Shown here piece by piece: positions 1-29,296 of a stretch of 64,000 nt of DNA (its first letter is position 1; each line of letters starts with the position of its first letter). The notes beneath the pieces were generated by a model, which had not been told where the DNA came from, searched no databases, and was given only the letters and a program-made list of their open reading frames with translations. The stretch covers positions 7,268 to 71,267 of the IMG/VR virus record IMGVR_UViG_3300046810_000322; one strand, written 5' to 3'. The stretch comes from a virus. Both the position numbers and the translations under genes were made by a program.

Positions 1-310
1 CTTCACTCCAGCCCGCTCACTGAACGATCAGTTTGGTGCAGCAAAGCAGCAAAACGATGTCCGAGTCTCCAACCTCAAAGACACGAACGATATCTTGTCC
101 AAGTCGTACGAAACATTGGGCACGATCTCGAATACGTTGTCTGACATCAAAGGGTTGTTGGGTGTCGGAGCCTCAGGTGCCAAGGCTGCTGAAGCCTCTG
201 GTAACAGCAATGCAATACCAACGTCGCAAAGTGCACGCAATGCGGATAAGCGCGTAAAGGATCTTCCTAAGCCACCAATCAGTGTTGCGCGTCCAGCTGC
301 ACCGTACTAA
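1..310 (+). CDS. 3' end of a gene starting before the window (possibly the large tail-associated protein, phiKZ gp181-like by position)
   Basis: Frame open from position 2 (FTPARSLNDQFG...) to TAA at 308-310, followed by a hairpin; identity inferred only from the neighbouring gene. Confidence 0.5.
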   Translation, partial: FTPARSLNDQFGAAKQQNDVRVSNLKDTNDILSKSYETLGTISNTLSDIKGLLGVGASGAKAAEASGNSNAIPTSQSARNADKRVKDLPKPPISVARPAAPY

Positions 311-7102: not shown

Positions 7103-7654
7103 TTATTTTTTCTCAACCGGTGTTTTCAAGACCGGATGGTCAAGGTCAATGAATGCAAAGATCAGCATTACAATAACCAGCCAGGTATTCGCGACGATGA
7201 TAGCACGCGCCTGACTCGCGTTTGGTAATTCCTCTAAGAAATTGGGTGGCATGCAGACACTGTCGTCAGCAGCAGTTGATTCTTCTGCTGACACAAACAG
7301 TCCGGCGTCCATGTCTTCCGACATGGCGATAGCCAAGTCCAGCAAGATCGCGTTTGCGACACTCCTGCCTTGGCCTCCCGAAATGTTCATGAAGAAAACA
7401 AACCTGGTATTCATGAACCAAGAACGGAGAATTTCATCGTTGAAGATGAATTTGTCCGCCAGTTCAGTGAGCATATCCTTGGTACCCAAGAGATGCGCAT
7501 TCCATTCGCCAAGCAAAACGATCAGCTTGGAGCGAACGTACACAGCATCGTCAGAGGACAAATTCCGCAAGGTCTGCTCCATGGCAGCGATAAATCGGCC
7601 CTTGACAAGATCAACGTCGTAGGCCACTGGAGTAGGTTCGTTCATATCTCTCAC
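7103..7654 (-). CDS. Hypothetical protein
   Basis: 183-aa ORF coupled to the RNAP subunit gene. Confidence 0.7.
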   Translation of the reverse strand: MRDMNEPTPVAYDVDLVKGRFIAAMEQTLRNLSSDDAVYVRSKLIVLLGEWNAHLLGTKDMLTELADKFIFNDEILRSWFMNTRFVFFMNISGGQGRSVANAILLDLAIAMSEDMDAGLFVSAEESTAADDSVCMPPNFLEELPNASQARAIIVANTWLVIVMLIFAFIDLDHPVLKTPVEKK

Positions 7655-10027: not shown

Positions 10028-11581
10028 TTAAGCAGCTTTAGCGAAGCCGTACAGCTCTTTGCCTTCCTTCATGTCGCTCAGCAACGGGCCGTAAGCTACG
10101 GTGTTCAGGATCTTCTCGAACGGCCCCTTGTTGATCTTGGCTGCTGCTTCAGGACCAACCAGCTTGTCGTACCAGTACGGATGGTAACCGCCGTGGTACA
10201 TACGCCACAGGTCGATGGTCGACAGTTCTGGGATTGGACTTTCACCCAAGCACCAGTAACCGCGCGTCTGGAGCAGAACAGTCCAGTCGTAGCCGCGTGC
10301 GGTCAAACCCTTGTGCAGCTCGTCTGGTGCCACGAACCAACCTTCTTCCGTGACCCACGACCAGTGCTCTTCCATCTGCTTCATTTCCATCGTGAAGTTC
10401 AGCGCACGGCAGAACAATGGATCTTCATCGATCTTCGCTCGTACAGTGTTGCGGGTAGCAGTCACACCTGGATACAGATGCATGGCCATGATCGAACCGC
10501 CGCCGCCGGATACTTCCATGCCCCAGCGCTTACGGGAACGCAAGTAGTGGAACTCGCTCAGCTCCGGCAGCACACCAGTCTTTTGCGAGACGAGGATTTC
10601 GTGCAACACACCCGATGGTCCACCTTTACTGCGCAGCTGCTTCAGCTTCGTCAGCTGCAGGTCGGAGTCTTTCGGACGGGCCGTCTTCGGATCGATTGGG
10701 TATTCCGGCTTCAGGTCGTCATCCCAGTACTTGTCCGATTGTTCAATCCACCAGCAATCGTGCGTGGCGAAGGTGAACTTGGAGGTAGCGCCCTTGAGTG
10801 CTTCGCCGGACGGCAGGTTCTTCAGCTGTTGGCGCGGTGGCGCATGTGGCGAGGCGCCGATGTCGGTGTTCTTACCGATCTGGGCGACCAGTACGGTGTA
10901 GTTGTTGGCCTGGATCGTGACGCGTGGCAGTTCGGACAGGAAGTTGGTCTTCACCAAACCTGCACGCATGTTCAGGATGTTCTGCGCGCCAGTGCCCAGT
11001 TCGGTCTTATCGCGAACAGCGTCCATGTCGTCGGTGTCGAAGTCGGTCAACGAATCGACGGCGCAGAATGTTGGAACGAACATCTTGAAGTGCGTCTTGC
11101 CACCACGGTCCATGAACGGCGTGTCGAAGCTGTTCTTGCGGTCCTTACGCTTGCCGTCCAGCCAGTCCTTGATCATGTCGAAGAACTTGTTGCCGCTGTA
11201 CTGAACTTTGTTGGTCAGACTGAATCGACCAGCCGAGAACAGATCACGGTTGCACAGAACCTTGACGGCCATTTGCAGCTCGGTCATGCGTGGTTCGTTC
11301 TTGTTGATTTCGGTATCGTAGAAGATACCGGCGCTTGGCGTTTCGAAGGTCCAGGACGTTACCCGCCCCATGGCGGTGTACATGAACCATTCGGCCAGCG
11401 TCGACTTGCCGACGTTGCCCTTGGCAGCGATCCCCAGAATGTAGGAGAAACCACCAGAGAGAACGTTCTGGCGATGGATGCCTTTGTAATACGTGCCATT
11501 CAGGATATCAAACCCTGCCCCCACTGGAATGGATGGATTGATATACGCTGCTGGCTGAAGGGTACCGGGTAATAAGCTCAC
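10028..11581 (-). CDS. uvsX: UvsX/RecA-like recombinase (phiKZ gp152-like)
   Basis: Walker A AKGNVGKST, YDTE, Walker B AVDSLT. Confidence 0.85.
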   Translation of the reverse strand: MSLLPGTLQPAAYINPSIPVGAGFDILNGTYYKGIHRQNVLSGGFSYILGIAAKGNVGKSTLAEWFMYTAMGRVTSWTFETPSAGIFYDTEINKNEPRMTELQMAVKVLCNRDLFSAGRFSLTNKVQYSGNKFFDMIKDWLDGKRKDRKNSFDTPFMDRGGKTHFKMFVPTFCAVDSLTDFDTDDMDAVRDKTELGTGAQNILNMRAGLVKTNFLSELPRVTIQANNYTVLVAQIGKNTDIGASPHAPPRQQLKNLPSGEALKGATSKFTFATHDCWWIEQSDKYWDDDLKPEYPIDPKTARPKDSDLQLTKLKQLRSKGGPSGVLHEILVSQKTGVLPELSEFHYLRSRKRWGMEVSGGGGSIMAMHLYPGVTATRNTVRAKIDEDPLFCRALNFTMEMKQMEEHWSWVTEEGWFVAPDELHKGLTARGYDWTVLLQTRGYWCLGESPIPELSTIDLWRMYHGGYHPYWYDKLVGPEAAAKINKGPFEKILNTVAYGPLLSDMKEGKELYGFAKAA

Positions 11582-15733: not shown

Positions 15734-17047
15734 ATGTATGCACTGAAAGGCTTTATCTCTAACACCCCCTTCTCCGACAACACCCCTGGTGCGAAGGCGA
15801 AACTGGGTGAGCTGTCGAAGCACAGCCGGACATTCTCGCGTGAGTCGGGCGAGTACAGCGATCAGGACATTGCGCCTAATCTGACCCTCACGACGTTCAT
15901 CTCCAAGAACGGCGATGTATCGGTTGAGATGCCCGCGCTGATCACCAAACAAACGTTGGAGGTGGCCAACTTCATTTATGCTCAGACGCTGGGCGGCCAA
16001 CTGGATATCCTGCCAGCGGTGATGCTGGAAAATCTGCTGACGGACTTCGTTGGCAAAGCAAGCGAGTTCGAGTGCGGTAACATGGTGTCGAATGGCGTAT
16101 ACACGCTGCCTGAATGGGTGTCGTGGAAATGCTTGAACGACCCGGCTCATCCAGACAATTTCCTGAAGGTCTGGTTCGTCGATAACAGCTTCCAGCAGCA
16201 GTACGACGAATACGAAATCTACGTGATCCCGCCGCTGGCGGTCTTGAATAACTTCTTCAAGCCTGGCAGCGAAGTGGAAGCCATGATTGATAACCTGACC
16301 AGTTCCGATACCATGGAACGGATTCAGGCTGCCAAGGCAGGTTATCCAGAAACGGTAGTACGGACCAATACGTACAACTATATCGACCCGCTGAATTCGG
16401 CGCACGTGGTGCCAACCGACTGGAGTGTGTTGATCTACGGCGCCGCTGGCGACAACGTGGACGCGATCAAAGATGCACTGATGGCCTACATCCTGGCTAA
16501 CAGCACGCATACCCGCAATGAATGGACGAAGATCTTCCCGGACATTTTCAAGCGCACGGAATTCATTCTGTTGCCTTTGTGGGATCAGTACGCGATTCCT
16601 AATCGCGAGCTGGCGACTGGCATTTACTCGCCACAGATCCAATTGGCAACAGTAGTTTCCAAAATGAAACAATTCGCCACGCAATACCCAGAGGCTCATA
16701 TTGATTCGCATCTGACGATGATGGGTCATCCATACCGCTCTTTGGCGCTGGTTTCTATCGGCTCTCCGGACAACCGGAATACCCAGTTCAAGCTGTTGGA
16801 TATCTTCCCAGATCTGATCGCAGTCTCGTCAACTTCGGTCGATTTCAACCGCATGAGCCAGATCACTCAGGACTGGGCATCCATGTTGGCCAACATGCTG
16901 GTGACTGCAGAAAGCATGAGCGAGTTCGCCAGCATCCCAAGCGGCATGATGAAGGTGACCCGCGACGGCATCCTGTACCTGACAAAGAGCTACCGCAACA
17001 TCAACTACCTGATGGTGGCGAAATCGAACCTGAATGAGGTTGGCTAA
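15734..17047 (+). CDS. Virion structural protein (phiKZ gp157-like)
   Basis: 437 aa; MYxLKGF...GELS..S.TFSR..G.Y N-terminus recalled from this family. Confidence 0.65.
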   Translation: MYALKGFISNTPFSDNTPGAKAKLGELSKHSRTFSRESGEYSDQDIAPNLTLTTFISKNGDVSVEMPALITKQTLEVANFIYAQTLGGQLDILPAVMLENLLTDFVGKASEFECGNMVSNGVYTLPEWVSWKCLNDPAHPDNFLKVWFVDNSFQQQYDEYEIYVIPPLAVLNNFFKPGSEVEAMIDNLTSSDTMERIQAAKAGYPETVVRTNTYNYIDPLNSAHVVPTDWSVLIYGAAGDNVDAIKDALMAYILANSTHTRNEWTKIFPDIFKRTEFILLPLWDQYAIPNRELATGIYSPQIQLATVVSKMKQFATQYPEAHIDSHLTMMGHPYRSLALVSIGSPDNRNTQFKLLDIFPDLIAVSSTSVDFNRMSQITQDWASMLANMLVTAESMSEFASIPSGMMKVTRDGILYLTKSYRNINYLMVAKSNLNEVG

Positions 17048-23293: not shown

Positions 23294-24529
23294 TTAAACG
23301 TCAGAACCAATCAGCAGGAAATGCGCATGCTCGTTCTCGTAACCCATCGAAGCCACATGGGAATCCGACACGGATAACTGTTTCAGCGTCGGGACAGAGT
23401 CGTAGTTGTGAACACCCTTCCACGAAGCGCTAATGTTCACGGAGTAACGATCGTGCTCCTTACGTGGCCAGAAGACTTCATGTCGACCACGGCCAACGAT
23501 CAGTGGATAGATCGGTGGTTCAGACGACGTATAGCAGCCAGGGAAAGGCGAAGCACGCAGTTCAATGGCATCAACGAAGATTTCTGGATTATCCAACACC
23601 ACGAAGAAGGTCTGCGACATGGTCAGGTATTTACGCAGCACTGCATCGCTGTACAGATTGTTGATGCTAATCTGCTCATCGTTGGTGGGGGCTGTTTCCA
23701 TACCCAGTACAGACAGGTCCAGTACCTTGTAAGATTCGTAGAAACGATCGACCAAAGGGATCTGACCGAAGTCGATACCAAAAGCCGACTTACTGATACG
23801 GAACAGCGCACGCTTATCCAGCACGTGCAGATAACCACCCAACACCAACATGACCGTCTTGTTCGACAAGTCCACGCCAGTATCCACGTAACAGTTGTTG
23901 CGCAGCAGCTCGCCGTCCTTATGGACGTAGATCATCTCGTCCTTGATCGGAATATAGTTCAGGTCACCCAGTTGCAGGAAGGACAGGATGCCCAACTCAT
24001 TCCGACCCGCATACTCGCAAGTCTTCATGCCATCGACCACGAACAAGCCATCTGTGCTGTAGTCTGTTTGATGGTAGAAGCCGTTGACATTAATCAGACA
24101 ACGGTTATACATCAGCTGGTAGTCCATCCCATCCTTGGTCATCAGCAACCAAGGTTTGTCAGCGACCGTCAGCGAGCTGGAAGCCGAGATAGTGGGGTGG
24201 GTTGGAGTGACGCCGTAGCCAGCCCGGACAGCATCCGAGAAGTTGGCATAACGGGTATTGATGTAAGGAACTTCGGTGGAGGTTGGCAGTGTACGATTAC
24301 CGTTACTCACCAACCAGTCATTGAAGGTTTGTGTGTTACCAGCCAAACTGGAACGCATCTTCTCAATGTCAAGACTGAACTTGCCAGTGAGCGCTGGGTG
24401 CTTCAGTGTGGCAATCACCCGTTTGAAGTTATTGAACAAGTCGTTCAGTGTAACTGATCCAATCTCCATTCCACGCCACCGCCCATTGCCATCGAGCGGT
24501 TTTACAATGGCAGAATCCAGTTGATACAT
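23294..24529 (-). CDS. Virion structural protein (phiKZ gp130-like)
   Basis: 411 aa; CLINVNGFYH and VMLVLGGYLH motifs; divergent from the fibre gene. Confidence 0.6.
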   Translation of the reverse strand: MYQLDSAIVKPLDGNGRWRGMEIGSVTLNDLFNNFKRVIATLKHPALTGKFSLDIEKMRSSLAGNTQTFNDWLVSNGNRTLPTSTEVPYINTRYANFSDAVRAGYGVTPTHPTISASSSLTVADKPWLLMTKDGMDYQLMYNRCLINVNGFYHQTDYSTDGLFVVDGMKTCEYAGRNELGILSFLQLGDLNYIPIKDEMIYVHKDGELLRNNCYVDTGVDLSNKTVMLVLGGYLHVLDKRALFRISKSAFGIDFGQIPLVDRFYESYKVLDLSVLGMETAPTNDEQISINNLYSDAVLRKYLTMSQTFFVVLDNPEIFVDAIELRASPFPGCYTSSEPPIYPLIVGRGRHEVFWPRKEHDRYSVNISASWKGVHNYDSVPTLKQLSVSDSHVASMGYENEHAHFLLIGSDV

Positions 24530-24628
24530 AGGAAAAATCCTTTAGTCTAGTGGGCGATGAGCCGAGATAATATAGTCGCTAGGACACTAACATAACATAT
24601 TTCCCAGACCTTTTTAAGGGTGCTTTTC

Positions 24629-25873
24629 ATGTCGAACGTTCTTACTAGCCCGCAATACCAGTTTGATCCGTCTGGTGTTAACCCAGCGAATCGAATCATT
24701 GGCGAACTGCAGCCTTTGACCGGTATGGGTGATCGGGATTACTACCTCGTTGTCCCTGCAGCCACTCCGTTCTTTGCGGACTCGATCCAGCTCAGTTTCA
24801 AATCCTTGCAAGGGGACATCCGCCTCCTTGTTGAAGGAGTAGATTATTATTTATCTCACTGGTTCATGGGTGCATCCCGTGCAACAGCCCAGCCAGTATA
24901 CGGTTCCATTACCCTGATGAACTCGGAGTTGCGTGGCACCTTGGTGCTTAACAATTACCAAACCATCGGCGGCGACTGGACCGTAGATACCAACACCATC
25001 GCAACGGTGCTGGCAGACCGCATTCATAACCCACGTCGCATCGCGTGGGATCAGGTGGCCGGCTACCCCACTATCTTTCCTCCTGTACCGCACGAGTGGA
25101 ACCTGGTGGACATGGTTGGTCAAAGTCAAATGCTGGCAGCCATTGATCGTATCGTTGACGCGATCCTGACGCAAGCGTCGTCGGCAATGATCGAACACAT
25201 CAACGACATGTCCGGCCAGGCGCACGGCATTACACCAGCCAGCATCGGCGCCGTGTCCTATGCCCAATTAATTGCAGCTGTGAACGATGCGGTTGCTGAT
25301 GCTGGTGGCACGACCGACGGCATCCAAGAAGGCGATAACAACAAGTTCTTTACTGAGGCGCGCGTACTCGCGACTAAGCTGGCTGGCTATGTGGTGAGCA
25401 ACACGGTGGCCAACTTGGCCGATACCGACAGCATCATGGTGGCACTCACCAAGCTGCAAGCGCAGGCTACAGCCAACGCCACTGAGATCGCCAAGAAGCT
25501 CAACACGGTTCGTCCGTATTTCACTGGTCTTGGTTCGCAGAACTTGGTGAAGCTGGTCATGACCACGTCGTTCTCCATCGACATCACCCAAGCAGAAGCT
25601 TTCCAAGTTCGGATTCAAGGTTCTGGTTCGATCGGTTTCAATACCGCGACCCTGGGCGACATGACCGACCGCGTGATTGCTTTCTCGGTGACCACGGTAA
25701 ACGATGGTACAGCTAACGCCTATGCCATTGCGTGGCCGTCGAATGTGAAGTGGGTGGATGGCACGCCACCTCCACGTACCACCGCAGCCAATGCAAAAGA
25801 CTACTGGTACTTCGTCTCGGAAGATGGCGGTGCCACGTACTCCGGTTCCCTGTCGAACGCAAACCCACGTTAA
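24629..25873 (+). CDS. Tail fibre/adaptor protein 1 (phiKZ gp131-family N-terminus)
   Basis: YQFDPSGVNPANRI.GE N-terminus; C-terminal domain shared with 30658-31731. Confidence 0.7.
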   Translation: MSNVLTSPQYQFDPSGVNPANRIIGELQPLTGMGDRDYYLVVPAATPFFADSIQLSFKSLQGDIRLLVEGVDYYLSHWFMGASRATAQPVYGSITLMNSELRGTLVLNNYQTIGGDWTVDTNTIATVLADRIHNPRRIAWDQVAGYPTIFPPVPHEWNLVDMVGQSQMLAAIDRIVDAILTQASSAMIEHINDMSGQAHGITPASIGAVSYAQLIAAVNDAVADAGGTTDGIQEGDNNKFFTEARVLATKLAGYVVSNTVANLADTDSIMVALTKLQAQATANATEIAKKLNTVRPYFTGLGSQNLVKLVMTTSFSIDITQAEAFQVRIQGSGSIGFNTATLGDMTDRVIAFSVTTVNDGTANAYAIAWPSNVKWVDGTPPPRTTAANAKDYWYFVSEDGGATYSGSLSNANPR

Positions 25874-25890: not shown

Positions 25891-27711
25891 ATGTCTCGTG
25901 TAACTAAACTTCAGCGCCGAGAGAGAACCAATGCCCGTGCAATCCCAGGAACGTTGACGTTTAACGCTCCCGGGGTCGCTGTGCTCAAGTATGGTAAGTC
26001 ACACATACTGGTCTCTGGTACTGGCGCGCCAGGCGGCGCAGCAACGCCGGGTAATGCAATCTATAACCCGGTTGTTCCTGGCACCGTCTCCGGCACCAAT
26101 CCAAACACCCCAGGCAATGTCAGTGGGTACAACCCTGTCATCCCTGGGAACGCGAATTACAATCCCAGCAATGGCGGTAACGCGAATTACAACCCGGATT
26201 CTGGCGGCAACTATGCCGGAACAAATCCAGGGACGGGCGGTAACGTAGCGGGTTACAACCCCATCACTCCTGGTACCCAGTACACCAACACGGGGACGTA
26301 CACCCCTGGTAATTATGTCCCTGCAAAATACACAGCAGGCACGAGTTATCAAAATCCTGCCACGTTCACTCCGGGTAACTTGGTCCCGGCGTCGTACACT
26401 GCCGGAACGAGCTACCAGAATCCGGCGACGTTTACTCCTGGTAATCCATACACGAACCCATCGACCTATACGCCTGGCAACACCAACGCCGGCTATGACG
26501 ATGAAATGCACACGGGGTATGGTACTCCGTGTCCTGGTGGCTGGAGTTTTGCTGGGTATGACATCAATGAACTTGGTAAGCCGGAGCGGATCTGTGTGAT
26601 CTACTACCCAGGTAACACCAACCCTGGAACTTACACTGCTGGTAACAACGGCACCAACCCAGGCACGACGACTCCAGGTAATGGTGGATCTAACTCTGGC
26701 ACATACACTCCGGCGTATTACAATCCAGGGACCACAACACCTGGCAATGGAGGGTCCAATTCCAGTACGTACACCCCCGCCTACAGTAACCCTGGGTCTT
26801 ATTCACCAGGGTCCACTGGTTACAATCCAGCAACTGGCGGCAACCCCACCTACAATCCACCCGTAGCTGGCAACCCGTATTACAACCCGTATGTCCCAGG
26901 AAACATCTCTGGTTACAACCCAGGTAACCCTGGCAATGTGGCTGGTTACAATCCAGATAACGGGGGTAACGCGACATACAACCCAGTAATACCAGGAACG
27001 GCGAATTATAATTTACCAACCCCGGGAAATGCTGTGTATAACCCGACAGTCCCTGGGAATATCTCCGGTTACAATCCGCCGAGTGGTGGAAATCTGATCG
27101 GATACAACCCAGACTCGCCTGGGAACTATGCTGGTGTGAACCCGCCGGGCGGTCACACGGTGGCAGGATACAACCCACCTACTGGTGGAAATGAAGCCTA
27201 TGCCAATGGTAGTGCAACGATTGTGGTGACAGGTCCTCCGGGTAACGCAGCTGCGTCACCAGAGTACTATACCTACACCACCTCGTCATTGTTTGCGCCC
27301 ACCACAACGTATTACGTGGACAACGCCAATGGCAACACGTACTACGCGCAGTTCAATGCCGACGGCACGAACTACAACCCATCTCAGCCTGGTAGCGCGA
27401 ACTACAATCCGGTAATTCCGGGTGAAGCTTATTACAACCCAGGTAACCCAGGGAATGCTATTTACAGTCCGGCTGTTCCAGGTACTGCGAATTACAATCC
27501 TACGGTTCCGGCAGCTGCAGCGTATAACCCGCCGACAAGCGGCGCGCCATCAGCTCCCTTCACTGTGTTGGGCGTCACGTTCCCAGGTTCGACCTCTGGT
27601 ACACCTGGAAGTTATGTGGCAGATCGTCTGGTCGAAGTACCTTACTCGGCCAACGGCGTAGCAATCCCGGTAGGACCTGGAGCACAAGTTGTTGTGAAAC
27701 AGCAGTTCTAA
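25891..27711 (+). CDS. YNP-repeat Pro/Gly/Asn/Tyr-rich protein A, putative fibre-tip adhesin
   Basis: 606 aa with many 10- and 11-aa YNPxxxGN repeats between short non-repetitive termini homologous to 31747-32673. Confidence 0.8.
   Translation: MSRVTKLQRRERTNARAIPGTLTFNAPGVAVLKYGKSHILVSGTGAPGGAATPGNAIYNPVVPGTVSGTNPNTPGNVSGYNPVIPGNANYNPSNGGNANYNPDSGGNYAGTNPGTGGNVAGYNPITPGTQYTNTGTYTPGNYVPAKYTAGTSYQNPATFTPGNLVPASYTAGTSYQNPATFTPGNPYTNPSTYTPGNTNAGYDDEMHTGYGTPCPGGWSFAGYDINELGKPERICVIYYPGNTNPGTYTAGNNGTNPGTTTPGNGGSNSGTYTPAYYNPGTTTPGNGGSNSSTYTPAYSNPGSYSPGSTGYNPATGGNPTYNPPVAGNPYYNPYVPGNISGYNPGNPGNVAGYNPDNGGNATYNPVIPGTANYNLPTPGNAVYNPTVPGNISGYNPPSGGNLIGYNPDSPGNYAGVNPPGGHTVAGYNPPTGGNEAYANGSATIVVTGPPGNAAASPEYYTYTTSSLFAPTTTYYVDNANGNTYYAQFNADGTNYNPSQPGSANYNPVIPGEAYYNPGNPGNAIYSPAVPGTANYNPTVPAAAAYNPPTSGAPSAPFTVLGVTFPGSTSGTPGSYVADRLVEVPYSANGVAIPVGPGAQVVVKQQF
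26314..26445 (+). repeat. 66-nt (22-aa) tandem duplication in the outbound arm
   Basis: YVPAKYTAGTSYQNPATFTPGN / LVPASYTAGTSYQNPATFTPGN; DNA copies differ mostly at third codon positions. Confidence 0.85.
26656..26787 (+). repeat. 66-nt (22-aa) tandem duplication in the return arm
   Basis: NPGTTTPGNGGSNSGTYTPAYY / NPGTTTPGNGGSNSSTYTPAYS. Confidence 0.85.
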
Positions 27712-27740: not shown

Positions 27741-28358
27741 ATGAACCAACCTCCTCGTTATGGTATCCCCCAGCTCGGCTGGCCATTGGTGTCGCACTGT
27801 GAATTCTTCGGCTGGTTTGATGCCAATCAGTGCAAAGACCTGCTGAGTTTGGGAGAACTGCTGGCATTCAAGCCAGGCGCGGTCGGTAACAACATGGTCG
27901 AGTCCGGTGTCCGCGACTCCAACGTGGCATGGATCGACGACAACCCGAACGGTCCGAACCACCAGCTGCGGGTCTGGTTGATCAACCACTTCGCTGCGGC
28001 AATTGGTCGTGTCAATCGTGACCGGTTCCAAGTCGACCTGGATCACTTCCATCCGCCGCAATTCACCAAGTACGATCTGAACCAGCACTACAATTGGCAC
28101 ACTGACGCCGAAGAAGGCAAAGAAGCCGAGACCGTGCGTAAGTTGTCGGCAGTACTGATGCTGACTGGTCCAGAAGAATACGAAGGTGGCGAGCTGGAGC
28201 TGAACATCAACGGCAATCCGGAAAAGACGCTGAAGCTGAAGCCGCCTGCAGGTACGATCGTGTTCTTCAATGCAGCGATGCCGCATCGCGTCCTGCCAGT
28301 TACTGAAGGTACGCGTGCTTCGATCGTCGTCTGGGCCGAAGGTCCGAAGAACCGTTAA
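27741..28358 (+). CDS. 2OG-Fe(II) oxygenase (prolyl-hydroxylase/PKHD-type)
   Basis: YNWHTD (HxD), RKLSAVLML, EYEGGEL, PHRVLPVTEGTR (distal His and 2OG-binding Arg). Confidence 0.92.
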   Translation: MNQPPRYGIPQLGWPLVSHCEFFGWFDANQCKDLLSLGELLAFKPGAVGNNMVESGVRDSNVAWIDDNPNGPNHQLRVWLINHFAAAIGRVNRDRFQVDLDHFHPPQFTKYDLNQHYNWHTDAEEGKEAETVRKLSAVLMLTGPEEYEGGELELNINGNPEKTLKLKPPAGTIVFFNAAMPHRVLPVTEGTRASIVVWAEGPKNR

Positions 28359-28369
28359 GGGAGCGTTTC

Positions 28370-29296
28370 ATGTTTGTGTTTGATAAATTAGCTCAATTTT
28401 TATTGACCGAAGAACGCATGGGTCGAATGGGCTTGCGGCATGAAACGCAAGAAGATCTCGATGCACTGCTGCCAGTCATCGAGTTCCTGTGCGAACCGCA
28501 GCATCGTCTGGTCATGCGTGAACCGGAACCAGCGATGAAGAACATCGCTGACTGGTGGAAGAAGATCCCAGCGAATCTGCCGAACGAACCTCGTACTCCA
28601 CGCGACCACTTCGGCATGCCGGTCATGACTGCCAAGAAGTGCATCCCACTGCTAGACGGCATGGCTTTGGGTTACACCATGGTCACCGCTGTTGACATCC
28701 ATGTGCGTACTGACCGTGATGGTAAGTTCATGGACATCAAGTGCGGTCCGACCTGGAACGGGGCATCGACCCATGACATCATCCAGCTGGGTGAACGAAC
28801 CTCGCCGACCTATCCGGGTCCTGCGATTAAGTTCCATAACCCGTGGGTGATCAAGACCCGACCTGGTTACTCGACGCTGTTTGTGCCGCCGCTGAACCAT
28901 GTGGAAGAGAAACGCTTCCAGTGCTTGGCTGCTGTGGTCGATACCGACACTTACCCGAAGCAGGTGAACTTCCCTGCTATCTGGTTTGCTAAAGGTCACG
29001 ACGGTCTGATACCGGCAGGTACTCCACTGGTCACCGCCATTCCATTCAAACGGAGTGATGTGCCTAAGGAGCTGCTGATCCGTACCATGCATGAGCGCGA
29101 GCGTCAGCACATCGCCATGTTGGAACGTGTACAGGGAGCGCGCTCCCATGTATACACGGACGAGCTGCGGGAAGACCGTAAGAAGTTCGCAGAGGCGAAA
29201 TGTCCTATGGGTCACCATGACACCACAGCGCTGCCCGCCAACGAACCCATCACCATCGGCACCTCTGGCGTCTTGGAAATCAAAGACCTCACGTAA
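28370..29296 (+). CDS. DUF6065-like (dUTPase-like beta fold) protein 1
   Basis: KKCIPLLD..GY, KFHNPWVIKTRPGYSTLFVPP, VVDTDTY..VNFP, IPAGTPL..IPFKR; family name from recall. Confidence 0.6.
   Translation: MFVFDKLAQFLLTEERMGRMGLRHETQEDLDALLPVIEFLCEPQHRLVMREPEPAMKNIADWWKKIPANLPNEPRTPRDHFGMPVMTAKKCIPLLDGMALGYTMVTAVDIHVRTDRDGKFMDIKCGPTWNGASTHDIIQLGERTSPTYPGPAIKFHNPWVIKTRPGYSTLFVPPLNHVEEKRFQCLAAVVDTDTYPKQVNFPAIWFAKGHDGLIPAGTPLVTAIPFKRSDVPKELLIRTMHERERQHIAMLERVQGARSHVYTDELREDRKKFAEAKCPMGHHDTTALPANEPITIGTSGVLEIKDLT

Follow-up and report, generated by a model that had tools for sequence, protein, structure and literature searches.

Protein A, the 606-residue product of an open reading frame (ORF) in an uncultured jumbo phage, represents a family of proteins in which strings of 10- and 11-residue units run out to a variable tip and come back in mirror order, with 11-mers facing 10-mers. 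The ORF lies at 25891..27711 on the plus strand of a 64,000-nt stretch of DNA (positions 7,268 to 71,267 of IMG/VR virus record IMGVR_UViG_3300046810_000322), to which we refer as the window. The family is undescribed and has so far been found only in uncultured phages. At the level of the family, comparison of sequences gives strong evidence that the length complementarity of facing units lies far beyond chance. We consider it rather probable that protein A is a fold-back, multi-armed receptor-binding protein at the tip of a fibre, with an antiparallel 11-versus-10 stalk and with both termini in one base. The physical hairpin, attachment to a fibre, receptor binding and the hydroxylation considered below are what we infer from these patterns.

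Layout of protein A

The start of the protein A gene is preceded by a Shine-Dalgarno-like GAAGGTAGG. The protein (P0001 in our family set) is dominated by few residue types: 95 Gly, 85 Pro, 82 Asn, 71 Thr and 59 Tyr are found among its 606 residues, and Gly, Pro and Asn together account for 43%. There are 39 Pro-Gly dipeptides (X-Pro-Gly) and 35 Asn-Pro dipeptides. Histidine occurs three times, HxH repeats are absent, and the consensus of the repeat units contains no His.

A first-pass annotation of this DNA had described, between residues 58 and 544 (26062..27522), outbound repeats of 11, 11, 10, 10, 11 and 11 residues and return repeats of 10, 10, 11, 11, 10 and 10 on either side of a tip containing Cys214 and Cys235. 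The spacing of “NP” anchors reproduces both series exactly: anchors at residues 59, 70, 81, 91, 101, 112 and 123 give the first, and anchors at 312, 322, 332, 343, 354 and 364, followed by NYNL at 374, give the second. The two cysteines are present and are the only ones in the protein. A second arm had also been described, with four 11-mers out and 10-mers back; the anchors from 384 to 428 mark four 11-mers and those from 496 to 546 mark five 10-mers, including a degenerate “YSP”, in agreement with that description.

Units were called with a parse of our own, in which dynamic programming (Viterbi) is applied to position-specific scoring matrices for two profiles derived from 115 family proteins. 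In what follows, 0 denotes a 10-mer, 1 denotes an 11-mer, and bracketed numbers within a string give the residues of tips and gaps. The parse of protein A begins and ends with a base segment, and all of its elements are on the plus strand. The N-terminal base segment (residues 1-52, 25891..26046) carries the family-conserved pattern RRERTN..TFNAPG..YGK..VSG.G, as judged by alignment and by a match to a hidden Markov model (HMM). The outbound run of arm 1 (residues 53-136, 26047..26298) consists of eight units, 01100110 (lengths 10, 11, 11, 10, 10, 11, 11, 10), and leads into inner repeats that we read directly from the sequence, namely PGN-started units of 22, 22 and 12 residues (residues 137-194, 26299..26472). 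Tip 1, with C214 and C235 in the context CPGGW...RIC, spans 45 residues (195-239, 26473..26607). On the way back, inner repeats of 12+10, 22 and 22 residues, likewise read from the sequence (residues 240-305, 26608..26805), precede a return run of eight units, 00011000 (lengths 10, 10, 10, 11, 11, 10, 10, 10; residues 306-387, 26806..27051). Arm 2 runs out in four 11-mers, 1111 (residues 388-431, 27052..27183), turns at tip 2, an aromatic-rich, 68-residue gap in the parse that has no Cys (residues 432-499, 27184..27387), and returns in five 10-mers, 00000 (residues 500-549, 27388..27537). The C-terminal base segment (residues 550-606, 27538..27708) carries the family-conserved pattern VLGV.FPG...GAQVVVKQQF, again by alignment and HMM match. 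The HMMs built from the family for the N- and C-terminal domains match protein A at 6.8e-19 and 2.5e-18, respectively.

The parse extends the earlier description in two respects. An additional 10-mer flanks each end of the arm 1 runs, creating two 10-10 pairs, and the inner part of arm 1 is itself mirrored, with 22, 22, 12 on the way out versus 12+10, 22, 22 on the way back. At the DNA level the repeats are 60–83% identical to one another; no inverted DNA repeats were found, and Tandem Repeats Finder reported no tandem array. Hence, the mirror pattern is not an artefact of a DNA palindrome or of recent slippage.

A length-complementarity grammar in the protein A family

Relatives of protein A were found by a word-indexed search (51 proteins) and by running HMMER exhaustively against 1.84 billion cluster representatives (80 proteins, 46 of them at E ≤1e-10). 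All are metagenomic and, where the source names them, they are named “hypothetical protein”. Protein A has no match in Pfam or PHROG, and no solved chain in the PDB matched it at E ≤10. A megablast search of the region against 50,697 cultured phage records returned nothing, and P0053, P0017 and protein B, a one-armed paralog encoded in the same window, found no relatives when used as queries for related IMG/VR loci. We rejected as chance matches 31 stretches of GTDB genomes that fit the DNA pattern of the repeat motif, since none encodes the N- or the C-terminal domain. Neither these repeats nor this architecture is described in the open-access papers that we searched.

Family members have in common the first ~50 and the last ~57 residues, with the same plan in between, and their stalks have from 2 to about 14 units per strand. 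Across the 115 proteins, the consensus of the 10-mer is P-G-N-A-N-Y-N-P-x-x, and that of the 11-mer, [G/P]-G-N-h-A-G-[Y/T]-N-P-x-x, is the 10-mer plus a Gly. Conservation is highest for Asn at position 7 or 8 (96% of units) and for Gly at position 2 (85–89%), and 11-mers also have Gly at position 6. By eye, 11-mers seem to be either “Y-A-G-T” or “[IVL]-[AS]-G-Y”, with a single aromatic residue at position 4 or 7. Tyr or Phe is at position 6 in 93% of 10-mers which, together with the aromatic residues of the 11-mers, suggests an aromatic ladder along the stalk.

Simple members of the family illustrate the plan: P0053 reads 111111 (55) 00000, and P0055 reads 000000 (9) 111111. Others have mixed runs, including P0089, 0011 (78) 0011; P0076, 1000010 (67) 10111?0; and P0005, 10101111110 (58) 1000000?010. 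A long stalk is found in L029, 1111111111110 (56) 0000000000000, and a short protein is P0064 (245 residues), 111110 (8) 100000. Tips can be as short as 3–9 residues, as in P0086, P0055 and P0064. Spacers can be mirrored along with units, as in arm 2 of L005, 11111(25)00(9)00(9)00(9)00(9)0 (56) 0(9)00(9)00(9)00(9)00(25)000000.

To quantify the grammar, we used the 44 of 115 proteins with exactly one tip of at least 20 residues and at least 2 units per side. The remaining 71 have no tip or several tips, have fewer than 2 units per side, are fragments, are protein A itself, or are unrelated low-scoring matches that contain no units (P0090, P0105, P0108, P0110 and P0113-P0115). The numbers of units out and back are closely correlated (r = 0.93); they match in 30 of the 44 proteins, with a difference of one unit in 10 and a larger one in 4. 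When units are paired antiparallel from the base, 186 of 201 pairs are complementary, i.e., 10 versus 11; the corresponding numbers are 182 of 206 when pairing is anchored at the tip, and 154 of 200 for parallel pairing. Shuffling the order of the return run gave a mean of 160.8 complementary pairs (standard deviation 4.0, maximum 174), and none of 5000 shuffles reached 186. Swapping partners between proteins lowered the complementary fraction from the observed 0.925 to 0.69. 11-mers predominate in the outbound run of 37 of the 44 proteins, and 10-mers in that of 6. Since both orientations exist, the rule concerns the units that face each other rather than their position in the chain.

The first-pass annotation had offered coupled insertions and deletions in opposing strands as a test of its own proposal, and the correlation across the 44 homologs is one form of the answer. 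A second comes from close relatives. We selected the closest non-overlapping protein pairs with at least 55% identity over the end domains that differ in run length, a choice that limits the effect of relatedness. Of 20 such pairs, 16 have both strands longer or both shorter in one member, 1 has opposite changes, and 3 have a change on one strand only (r = 0.79). For example, L039 has 7 units out and 7 back, and its 91% identical relative P0086, a protein of 178 residues with a 3-residue tip, has 3 and 3; P0055, with 6 and 6, has the same architecture. The prediction of coupled lengths was thus borne out in both comparisons. The sequences of facing units point the same way. Summed over 63 pairs from 12 homogeneous arms, the mutual information of facing units is 14.51 for antiparallel and 13.22 for parallel pairing, as compared to 12.51 ± 0.41 for random partners within the same protein, and none of 500 randomizations attained the antiparallel value.

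Could the runs of 11-mers and 10-mers simply be separate repeat domains on either side of a central domain, such as tight parallel solenoids or polyproline-like rods, whose similar unit numbers reflect a weak limit on size? In many proteins each run consists of one unit type (111111 ... 000000), a pattern that two repeat types would explain equally well, and parallel pairing still yields 154 complementary pairs of 200. Moreover, AlphaFold2 does not confidently pair the runs. However, in the 15 proteins with mixed runs, such as P0089 and P0076, mirror order fits 80 of 89 pairs, as compared to 51 of 90 for parallel order. Separate domains also sit poorly with the coupled length changes in close relatives, with the occurrence of both orientations, and with mirrored spacers such as those of L005. 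Furthermore, the base model described below joins the two ends of the chain, such that the runs begin and end side by side. We therefore regard separate repeat domains as very improbable. Likewise, mirror order and coupled insertions and deletions would not be expected of a parallel beta-solenoid, although a solenoid confined to each single run would be compatible with them.

Orthologs of protein A gain or lose whole arms. In four of them, proteins of 754–971 residues encoded on related contigs, the 01100110 run of arm 1 is kept along with its CPxGW...C tip, while the other arms vary in number. The CPxGW...C module is found at tips of these orthologs and of P0004, P0006, P0057 and P0058, and in L005 the Cys knob is repeated on the second arm. 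In the ortholog L006, the outbound pattern of units and gaps, (12)0(12)0(2)0, is mirrored on the return. In L007 (2384..5296; also in L030 and L033), an arm of five 11-mers, an 85-residue tip and five 10-mers lies inside the return strand of arm 1, making the protein nested and three-tipped. The first-pass annotation had likened the chain to an RNA multi-branch structure. The gain and loss of whole arms and the nested arm of L007 are as that comparison would have it, but no structure supports the stalk. Hence, we consider the proposed fold partly supported: strongly by comparative sequence evidence, and by no structure of the stalk.

A predicted base domain formed by both ends of the chain

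We used AlphaFold2 to model the short homolog P0064 with a 58-sequence alignment. The model has a mean predicted local distance difference test (pLDDT) score of 67.0, and 74 residues score at least 90. These are in an N-terminal segment (residues ~21-50) and a C-terminal segment (residues ~185-245; 88–97). When the stalk was trimmed from the model, VIA-align matched it to single-domain beta-sandwiches of 94–105 residues (1nlq_A and 7vrr_A; Z 5.1–5.3), with 75–82 aligned residues spanning 17..245. The C-terminal segment has ~71 residues, so an alignment of this length indicates that both segments contribute to one domain. The best match in VIA-align was the CUB-type domain of CD109 (Z 6.4); since all of these Z values are within the common range, we limit our claim to one beta-sandwich made from both ends, and propose no fold family. 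A Foldseek search with the P0064 model found no match at E ≤0.001 in the PDB or BFVD. The first-pass annotation had placed the N- and C-termini of protein A in a single base domain, and the model of this homolog, in which both segments join in one beta-sandwich at pLDDT >90, agrees. The model also has strands in the core residues NFAGN of the first outbound unit and ANYN of the last return unit.

Runs of equal and co-varying length, their mirror order, the mirrored spacers and the meeting of the chain ends in one domain have as their simplest joint account a stalk that folds back on itself. The same grammar would, however, fit pairing between chains just as well as pairing within a chain: if the protein were a homotrimer like most fibres, or another oligomer, each chain could place its outbound run against the return run of a neighbor, and the stalk would be a six-stranded needle. 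Most phage receptor-binding proteins are trimers (PMC12032242), and the needle of T4 gp37 is a trimer with interacting chains (PMC6957217). With as many as 14 units, a stalk of just two strands would probably be unstable by itself, and the base model has weak matches to trimeric jelly rolls of the C1q/TNF type, with Z of 4.3–4.5, within the common range. On the other hand, tips of 3–9 residues, as in P0086, P0055 and P0064, suit a simple hairpin turn, and the protein A gene sits where the genes for monomeric gp38 adhesins sit in T-even phages. A prediction of a three-copy complex of P0064, made with the alignment, scored 0.02, which weighs neither for nor against a trimer. We consider pairing between chains unlikely, but it is the most serious competitor to the intra-chain hairpin.

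Genes linked to the protein A family

The virus record is 71 kb long and is estimated to be 26% complete. The structural proteins encoded in the window are closest to those of Burkholderia and Ralstonia jumbo phages, with 46.6% identity at best. We considered and rejected a T4-like cyanophage identity; the virion protein encoded at 15734..17047 is closest to those of Burkholderia/Ralstonia jumbo phages.

Protein A starts 17 nt after fibre gene A (24620..25873, plus strand), whose 417-residue product matches PHROG tail, tail fibre and virion structural families (1.5e-42 and others). The N-terminal half of this fibre protein is found in 274 cultured jumbo-phage records; the C-terminal half is not found in them. 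The genes that follow protein A are all on the plus strand. The first (27741..28358) encodes a 205-residue, prolyl-hydroxylase-like 2-oxoglutarate (2OG)-Fe(II) oxygenase of PHROG 61 (PF13640 at 1.3e-18, 68.2 bits versus a cut-off of 27), in which the HxD...H triad (H120-T-D122 and H182) and the RxS motif (R192-A-S194) are intact. Its sequence matches in the PDB are 3dkq (6.3e-10), 4iw3 (2e-4) and 5c5t (3.3e-4), i.e., PKHD-type hydroxylases, Pseudomonas PPHD and the PBCV-1 prolyl 4-hydroxylase. Next are two paralogous genes that we assign, in part by synteny, to DUF6065: one for a 308-residue protein (28370..29296; phrog_7084 at 5.7e-43, and PF19541 at 1.1e-4, below the cut-off) and one for a DUF6065-like protein of 261 residues (29311..30096; phrog_7084 at 1.6e-23). 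They are followed by a small conserved ORF of 150 residues (30093..30545), possibly a tail assembly chaperone given a sub-threshold match to PF16778 (9.7e-5, 22.6 bits versus a cut-off of 26.6). Fibre gene B (30607..31731), which also has PHROG matches, encodes a 374-residue paralog of the first fibre protein with a C-terminal domain 41% identical to that of its counterpart. Finally, protein B (31747..32673), identified by a search of the same genome and by HMM matches, is a 308-residue, one-armed paralog of protein A that reads 0111110 (53) 0000000. Thus, a fibre gene paired with a fold-back repeat gene occurs twice between 24620 and 32673, the two pairs being separated by the oxygenase gene, the two DUF6065 genes and the chaperone-like ORF.

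Contig L005/L021 has these eight genes in the same layout. Contig L001, which was found through protein A (30% identical), has, in the order seen in the window, a gene with the fibre C-terminal domain, a family gene, the oxygenase gene, two DUF6065 genes and the small ORF. We also scanned IMG/VR with a DNA pattern for the unit PGNANYNP, a procedure that is blind to neighboring genes. All 18 of the contigs that matched encode a family member, and in 15 of them the oxygenase gene directly follows the family gene, usually with both DUF6065 genes after it. Because contigs L026, L029 and L038 seem almost the same, 13 of 16 may be the better count of independent cases. Among 20 family genes with upstream sequence, 19 are preceded by a gene with the fibre C-terminal domain and the remaining one by another family gene. 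Contig L034 (1972..3636, minus strand) has tandem family genes of 269 and 285 residues (1110/0000 and 111110/00000) after a single fibre gene of 917 residues, with no oxygenase gene in the 1.9 kb downstream.

DUF6065 has an unusual cross-domain distribution for a fibre-linked gene. Homologs of DUF6065/phrog_7084 were found by tblastn in 62 cultured records, which are from haloarchaeal tailed viruses (35 of Halorubrum, 11 of Haloarcula) and cyanophages, and not from jumbo phages. In halophage HF1 (L019) the homolog lies beside a block of baseplate and virion protein genes. In cyanophage-like contigs (L011, 514..1560) it is downstream of a gene for a 349-residue fibre-like protein with HxH repeats (GDHSHSF, GAHSHSG, GNHSHNF and others), the type of motif that binds iron in the T4 gp37 needle, and a gene whose product is 26–28% Gly lies ~1.3 kb beyond. 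The proximity of DUF6065 genes to fibre genes in haloarchaeal viruses and cyanophage-like contigs fits a general role in fibre assembly. The protein clusters of the structure/protein Atlas that contain DUF6065 are named only “DUF6065” and “Gp43 family”.

Elsewhere in the window, a 241-residue ORF with a hydrophobic N-terminus and a match to a PHROG endolysin family (33366..34091; phrog_669 at 2.4e-12) lies shortly after the fibre cluster. On opposite strands, long ORFs overlap at 23294..24529 (minus) and 23408..24457 (plus), at 10028..11581 (minus) and 10181..11572 (plus), and at other places in the window. In the first of these pairs, the minus-strand ORF alone has a PHROG match (phrog_3337 at 4.7e-96), so the plus-strand ORF is probably a shadow ORF.

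Proposed mode of action

What could be the function of a multi-armed protein encoded next to a fibre? The protein A gene follows a fibre gene, the family varies in how many arms and what tips it has, and Cys pairs occur at tips, all of which suggests that protein A sits on the upstream-encoded fibre and presents its tips to the host. We propose that the first ~50 and last ~57 residues join as one beta-sandwich base, which would dock on the C-terminal domain of the fibre protein. Each arm would be formed by a string of 10- and 11-residue units (PGNAxYNPxx or [PG]GNhAG[YT]NPxx) running out, a variable tip at the turn, and a return string lying antiparallel beside the first, such that an 11-mer lies against a 10-mer along the arm. 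The extra Gly of the 11-mer could form a bulge opposite the 10-mer. Protein A would have two arms, a long one with the two-cysteine CPxGW knob and a shorter one with the aromatic-rich tip, and the tips would attach to the surface of the host. In that case, host range could change when whole arms are gained, lost or exchanged.

A more speculative part of this model concerns the linked genes: the oxygenase, the two DUF6065 proteins and the small chaperone-like protein may help to fold or modify the Pro/Asn/Gly-rich stalk. Conservation of the oxygenase gene suggests hydroxylation of the stalk by its product, a possibility that we hold tentatively and do not favor. We see a reasonable possibility that the stalk is architecturally new. 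A broader proposal, which we consider less likely than not, is that protein A represents a new class of architecture in which strings of units recognize each other by an 11-versus-10 length code as in an RNA stem. Self-complementary arms could be inserted, removed or nested at any point of a strand with the remainder left intact, which would provide phages with a modular route to receptor-binding proteins with several tips, and folding would depend on a co-inherited maturation cassette of the oxygenase and the DUF6065 proteins.

An alternative is that the fold-back is correct but the role is different, with protein A serving as an assembly factor or scaffold for the fibre, as T4 gp38 does for gp37, or as a decoration or whisker protein. 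T4 itself has a chaperone gene, and not an adhesin gene, next after gp37 (PMC6957217). The cassette in the window includes a chaperone-like ORF, and in other phages DUF6065 genes adjoin fibre genes, one of which has HxH repeats. However, chaperones are usually small and conserved, and the protein A family varies arm number and tip type between close orthologs. Moreover, Cys-bridged knobs at the most exposed point would be the pattern expected of a determinant of host range. We therefore consider these other roles quite unlikely, and retain receptor binding as the preferred function.

Evidence that weighs against the model

Several observations weigh against a fold-back receptor-binding protein. 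By itself, the mirror pattern in protein A is only suggestive: 10 of its 12 facing pairs are complementary, a number equalled by 3549 of 100000 label shuffles (p ~0.035). In arm 1, six of the eight pairs are 10 versus 11, both end pairs are 10-10, and the count is six of eight for antiparallel and parallel pairing alike. Arm 1 is palindromic in its unit lengths, and thus protein A alone cannot separate the two modes of pairing. The first-pass annotation had stated that each 11-mer faces a 10-mer; this rule describes the 186 complementary pairs of the family and ten pairs of protein A, but does not extend to the 10-10 end pairs of arm 1. A Nussinov-type search for nested pairs, in which bulges were free, proved uninformative: none of the proteins analyzed (protein A, four of its orthologs, P0002, protein B) scored above its shuffled versions, and 158 of 300 shuffles reached the score of protein A. 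Within the family, the rule is violated in 15 of 201 cases, where 10-mers face each other (12 pairs) or 11-mers do (3 pairs). Furthermore, the homologs are interrelated, so the counts are not independent events, a problem that the paired comparison of close relatives lessens but does not remove. Shifted registers score equally high in mutual information, though with fewer pairs, and the register is therefore not fixed; a gradient in unit sequence from base to tip could be an alternative source of the antiparallel excess.

Structure prediction is similarly unsupportive of the stalk. Modelled without an alignment, protein A has a mean pLDDT of 32.4, with the stalk below 50, and the stalk of P0064 (residues 64-174) is below 50 even with the alignment. 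The tip of arm 2 had been called beta-rich; it has three strands only in the model, at pLDDT ~36–43. It could be argued that the repeat region is an intrinsically disordered spacer of low complexity whose regularities arose by recombination between repeats. The pLDDT of the stalk, below 50 throughout, and the extreme Gly/Pro/Asn/Thr/Tyr composition are what such a spacer would have. Unequal crossing-over acts, however, on a single run at a time, and by itself it cannot maintain two kinds of repeat, separated by hundreds of bases, in matching numbers and mirror order. In addition, the repeats are just 60–83% identical in DNA, which indicates that the units are old and maintained, and some of their positions are near-invariant (Asn at position 7 or 8, Gly at position 2). 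We consider a disordered spacer the least probable of the alternatives to a folded-back stalk.

For the proposed function, gene order is the evidence that points to a location in the virion and to receptor binding. Three of the 18 contigs found with the unit motif have no oxygenase gene beside the family gene within the DNA seen, and the same is true of protein B. DUF6065 has no sequence match in the PDB, either as a single protein or as a 16-sequence profile, and is mentioned by no paper in the literature searched. Finally, no family relative was found in the 50,697 cultured phage records by tblastn with protein A, its C-terminal 73 residues, P0017 and P0053, a search in which the low-complexity filter was on and weak relatives could escape.

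Significance

Receptor-binding proteins set which bacteria a phage can infect and are the phage parts most often re-engineered. The protein A family is invisible to Pfam, PHROGs and databases of cultured phages, and yet it follows a building rule that is simple and can be checked. If the two-stranded stalk is real, it would be a new way to make a rigid spacer of adjustable length from short repeats. It would also be a natural case of modular insertion of “hairpin” arms in a protein. For structure predictors, which now fail on the stalk, it would be a hard test case. If the reading that invokes a maturation cassette is correct, this would be the first phage fibre known to need enzymatic hydroxylation. 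The tight linkage may also provide a candidate substrate for the widespread PHROG-61 2OG oxygenases of phages. Phage 2OG oxygenases have been described as structurally close to human EGLN3 and as widespread in phages of marine bacteria (PMC12774648, 2026).

Comparison with known systems

Among known glycine-rich phage proteins, those of Pfam PF21722 (Gly_rich_2) are weak leads. A neighboring cluster found with a language model (score 0.79) has PF21722 in 47% of its members, many weak BFVD matches to the base model are named “Glycine-rich domain-containing protein” (E 0.45–3), and the N-terminal motif presumably resembles that of PF21722. None of 58 family members matches PF21722 at E ≤1, however, and the units of protein A differ in having a period of 10/11 and in being rich in Pro, Asn and Tyr rather than poly-Gly.

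Collagen and its prolyl 4-hydroxylases (P4Hs), of which there are also viral and bacterial forms, offer a parallel of another kind, in that the gene for a repeat protein rich in Pro and Gly adjoins that of a P4H-like 2OG oxygenase. The sites on which collagen P4H acts are X-Pro-Gly. Collagen differs in having a period of 3, with Gly at every third residue over long runs; the period of 10/11 in protein A means that its stalk is not a collagen triple helix. In addition, the best PDB matches of the oxygenase are PKHD-type hydroxylases of uncertain substrate.

The tip of T4 gp37 and the gp38 adhesins are the closest known parallels. In T4 gp37, the D10 collar is composed of residues 811-881 and 1010-1026, which flank the needle (D11), and seven iron ions are held in the needle by His residues of the trimer (PMC6957217). 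The gp37 tip is like the proposed form of protein A in that it is a phage fibre module with a base made of segments before and after an excursion and with the receptor-binding end at the turn; for the protein A family, a base of two segments is seen in the P0064 homolog model only. Unlike protein A, the gp37 needle is part of the fibre protein itself and has HxH iron sites. Protein A is encoded by a separate gene, has three His, is built of 10/11-residue PGN..YNP units, and belongs to a family in which two or three arms are possible.

The gp38 adhesins of Straboviridae of the T2/S16 type are encoded after gp37 and have conserved ends, a Gly-rich scaffold and variable segments for host recognition (PMC12032242, PMC3157838). 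They contain five glycine-rich motifs, packed as a three-layer polyglycine-II sandwich whose loops have four residues (PMC12032242). They resemble protein A in being encoded by a separate gene right after the distal fibre gene, a position that protein A shares, and in combining a repeated scaffold with variable segments. Protein A has no PHROG or Pfam match, and no PDB chain at E ≤10, that would place it among them. Protein A, which has neither HxH iron sites nor polyglycine sandwich motifs and is not similar in sequence to gp37 or gp38, is a member of neither class. In contrast to the compact gp38, proteins of its family would have a long stalk, built of between 2 and about 14 pairs of units and subject to a length rule, whole domains as tips, and a base drawn from both termini.

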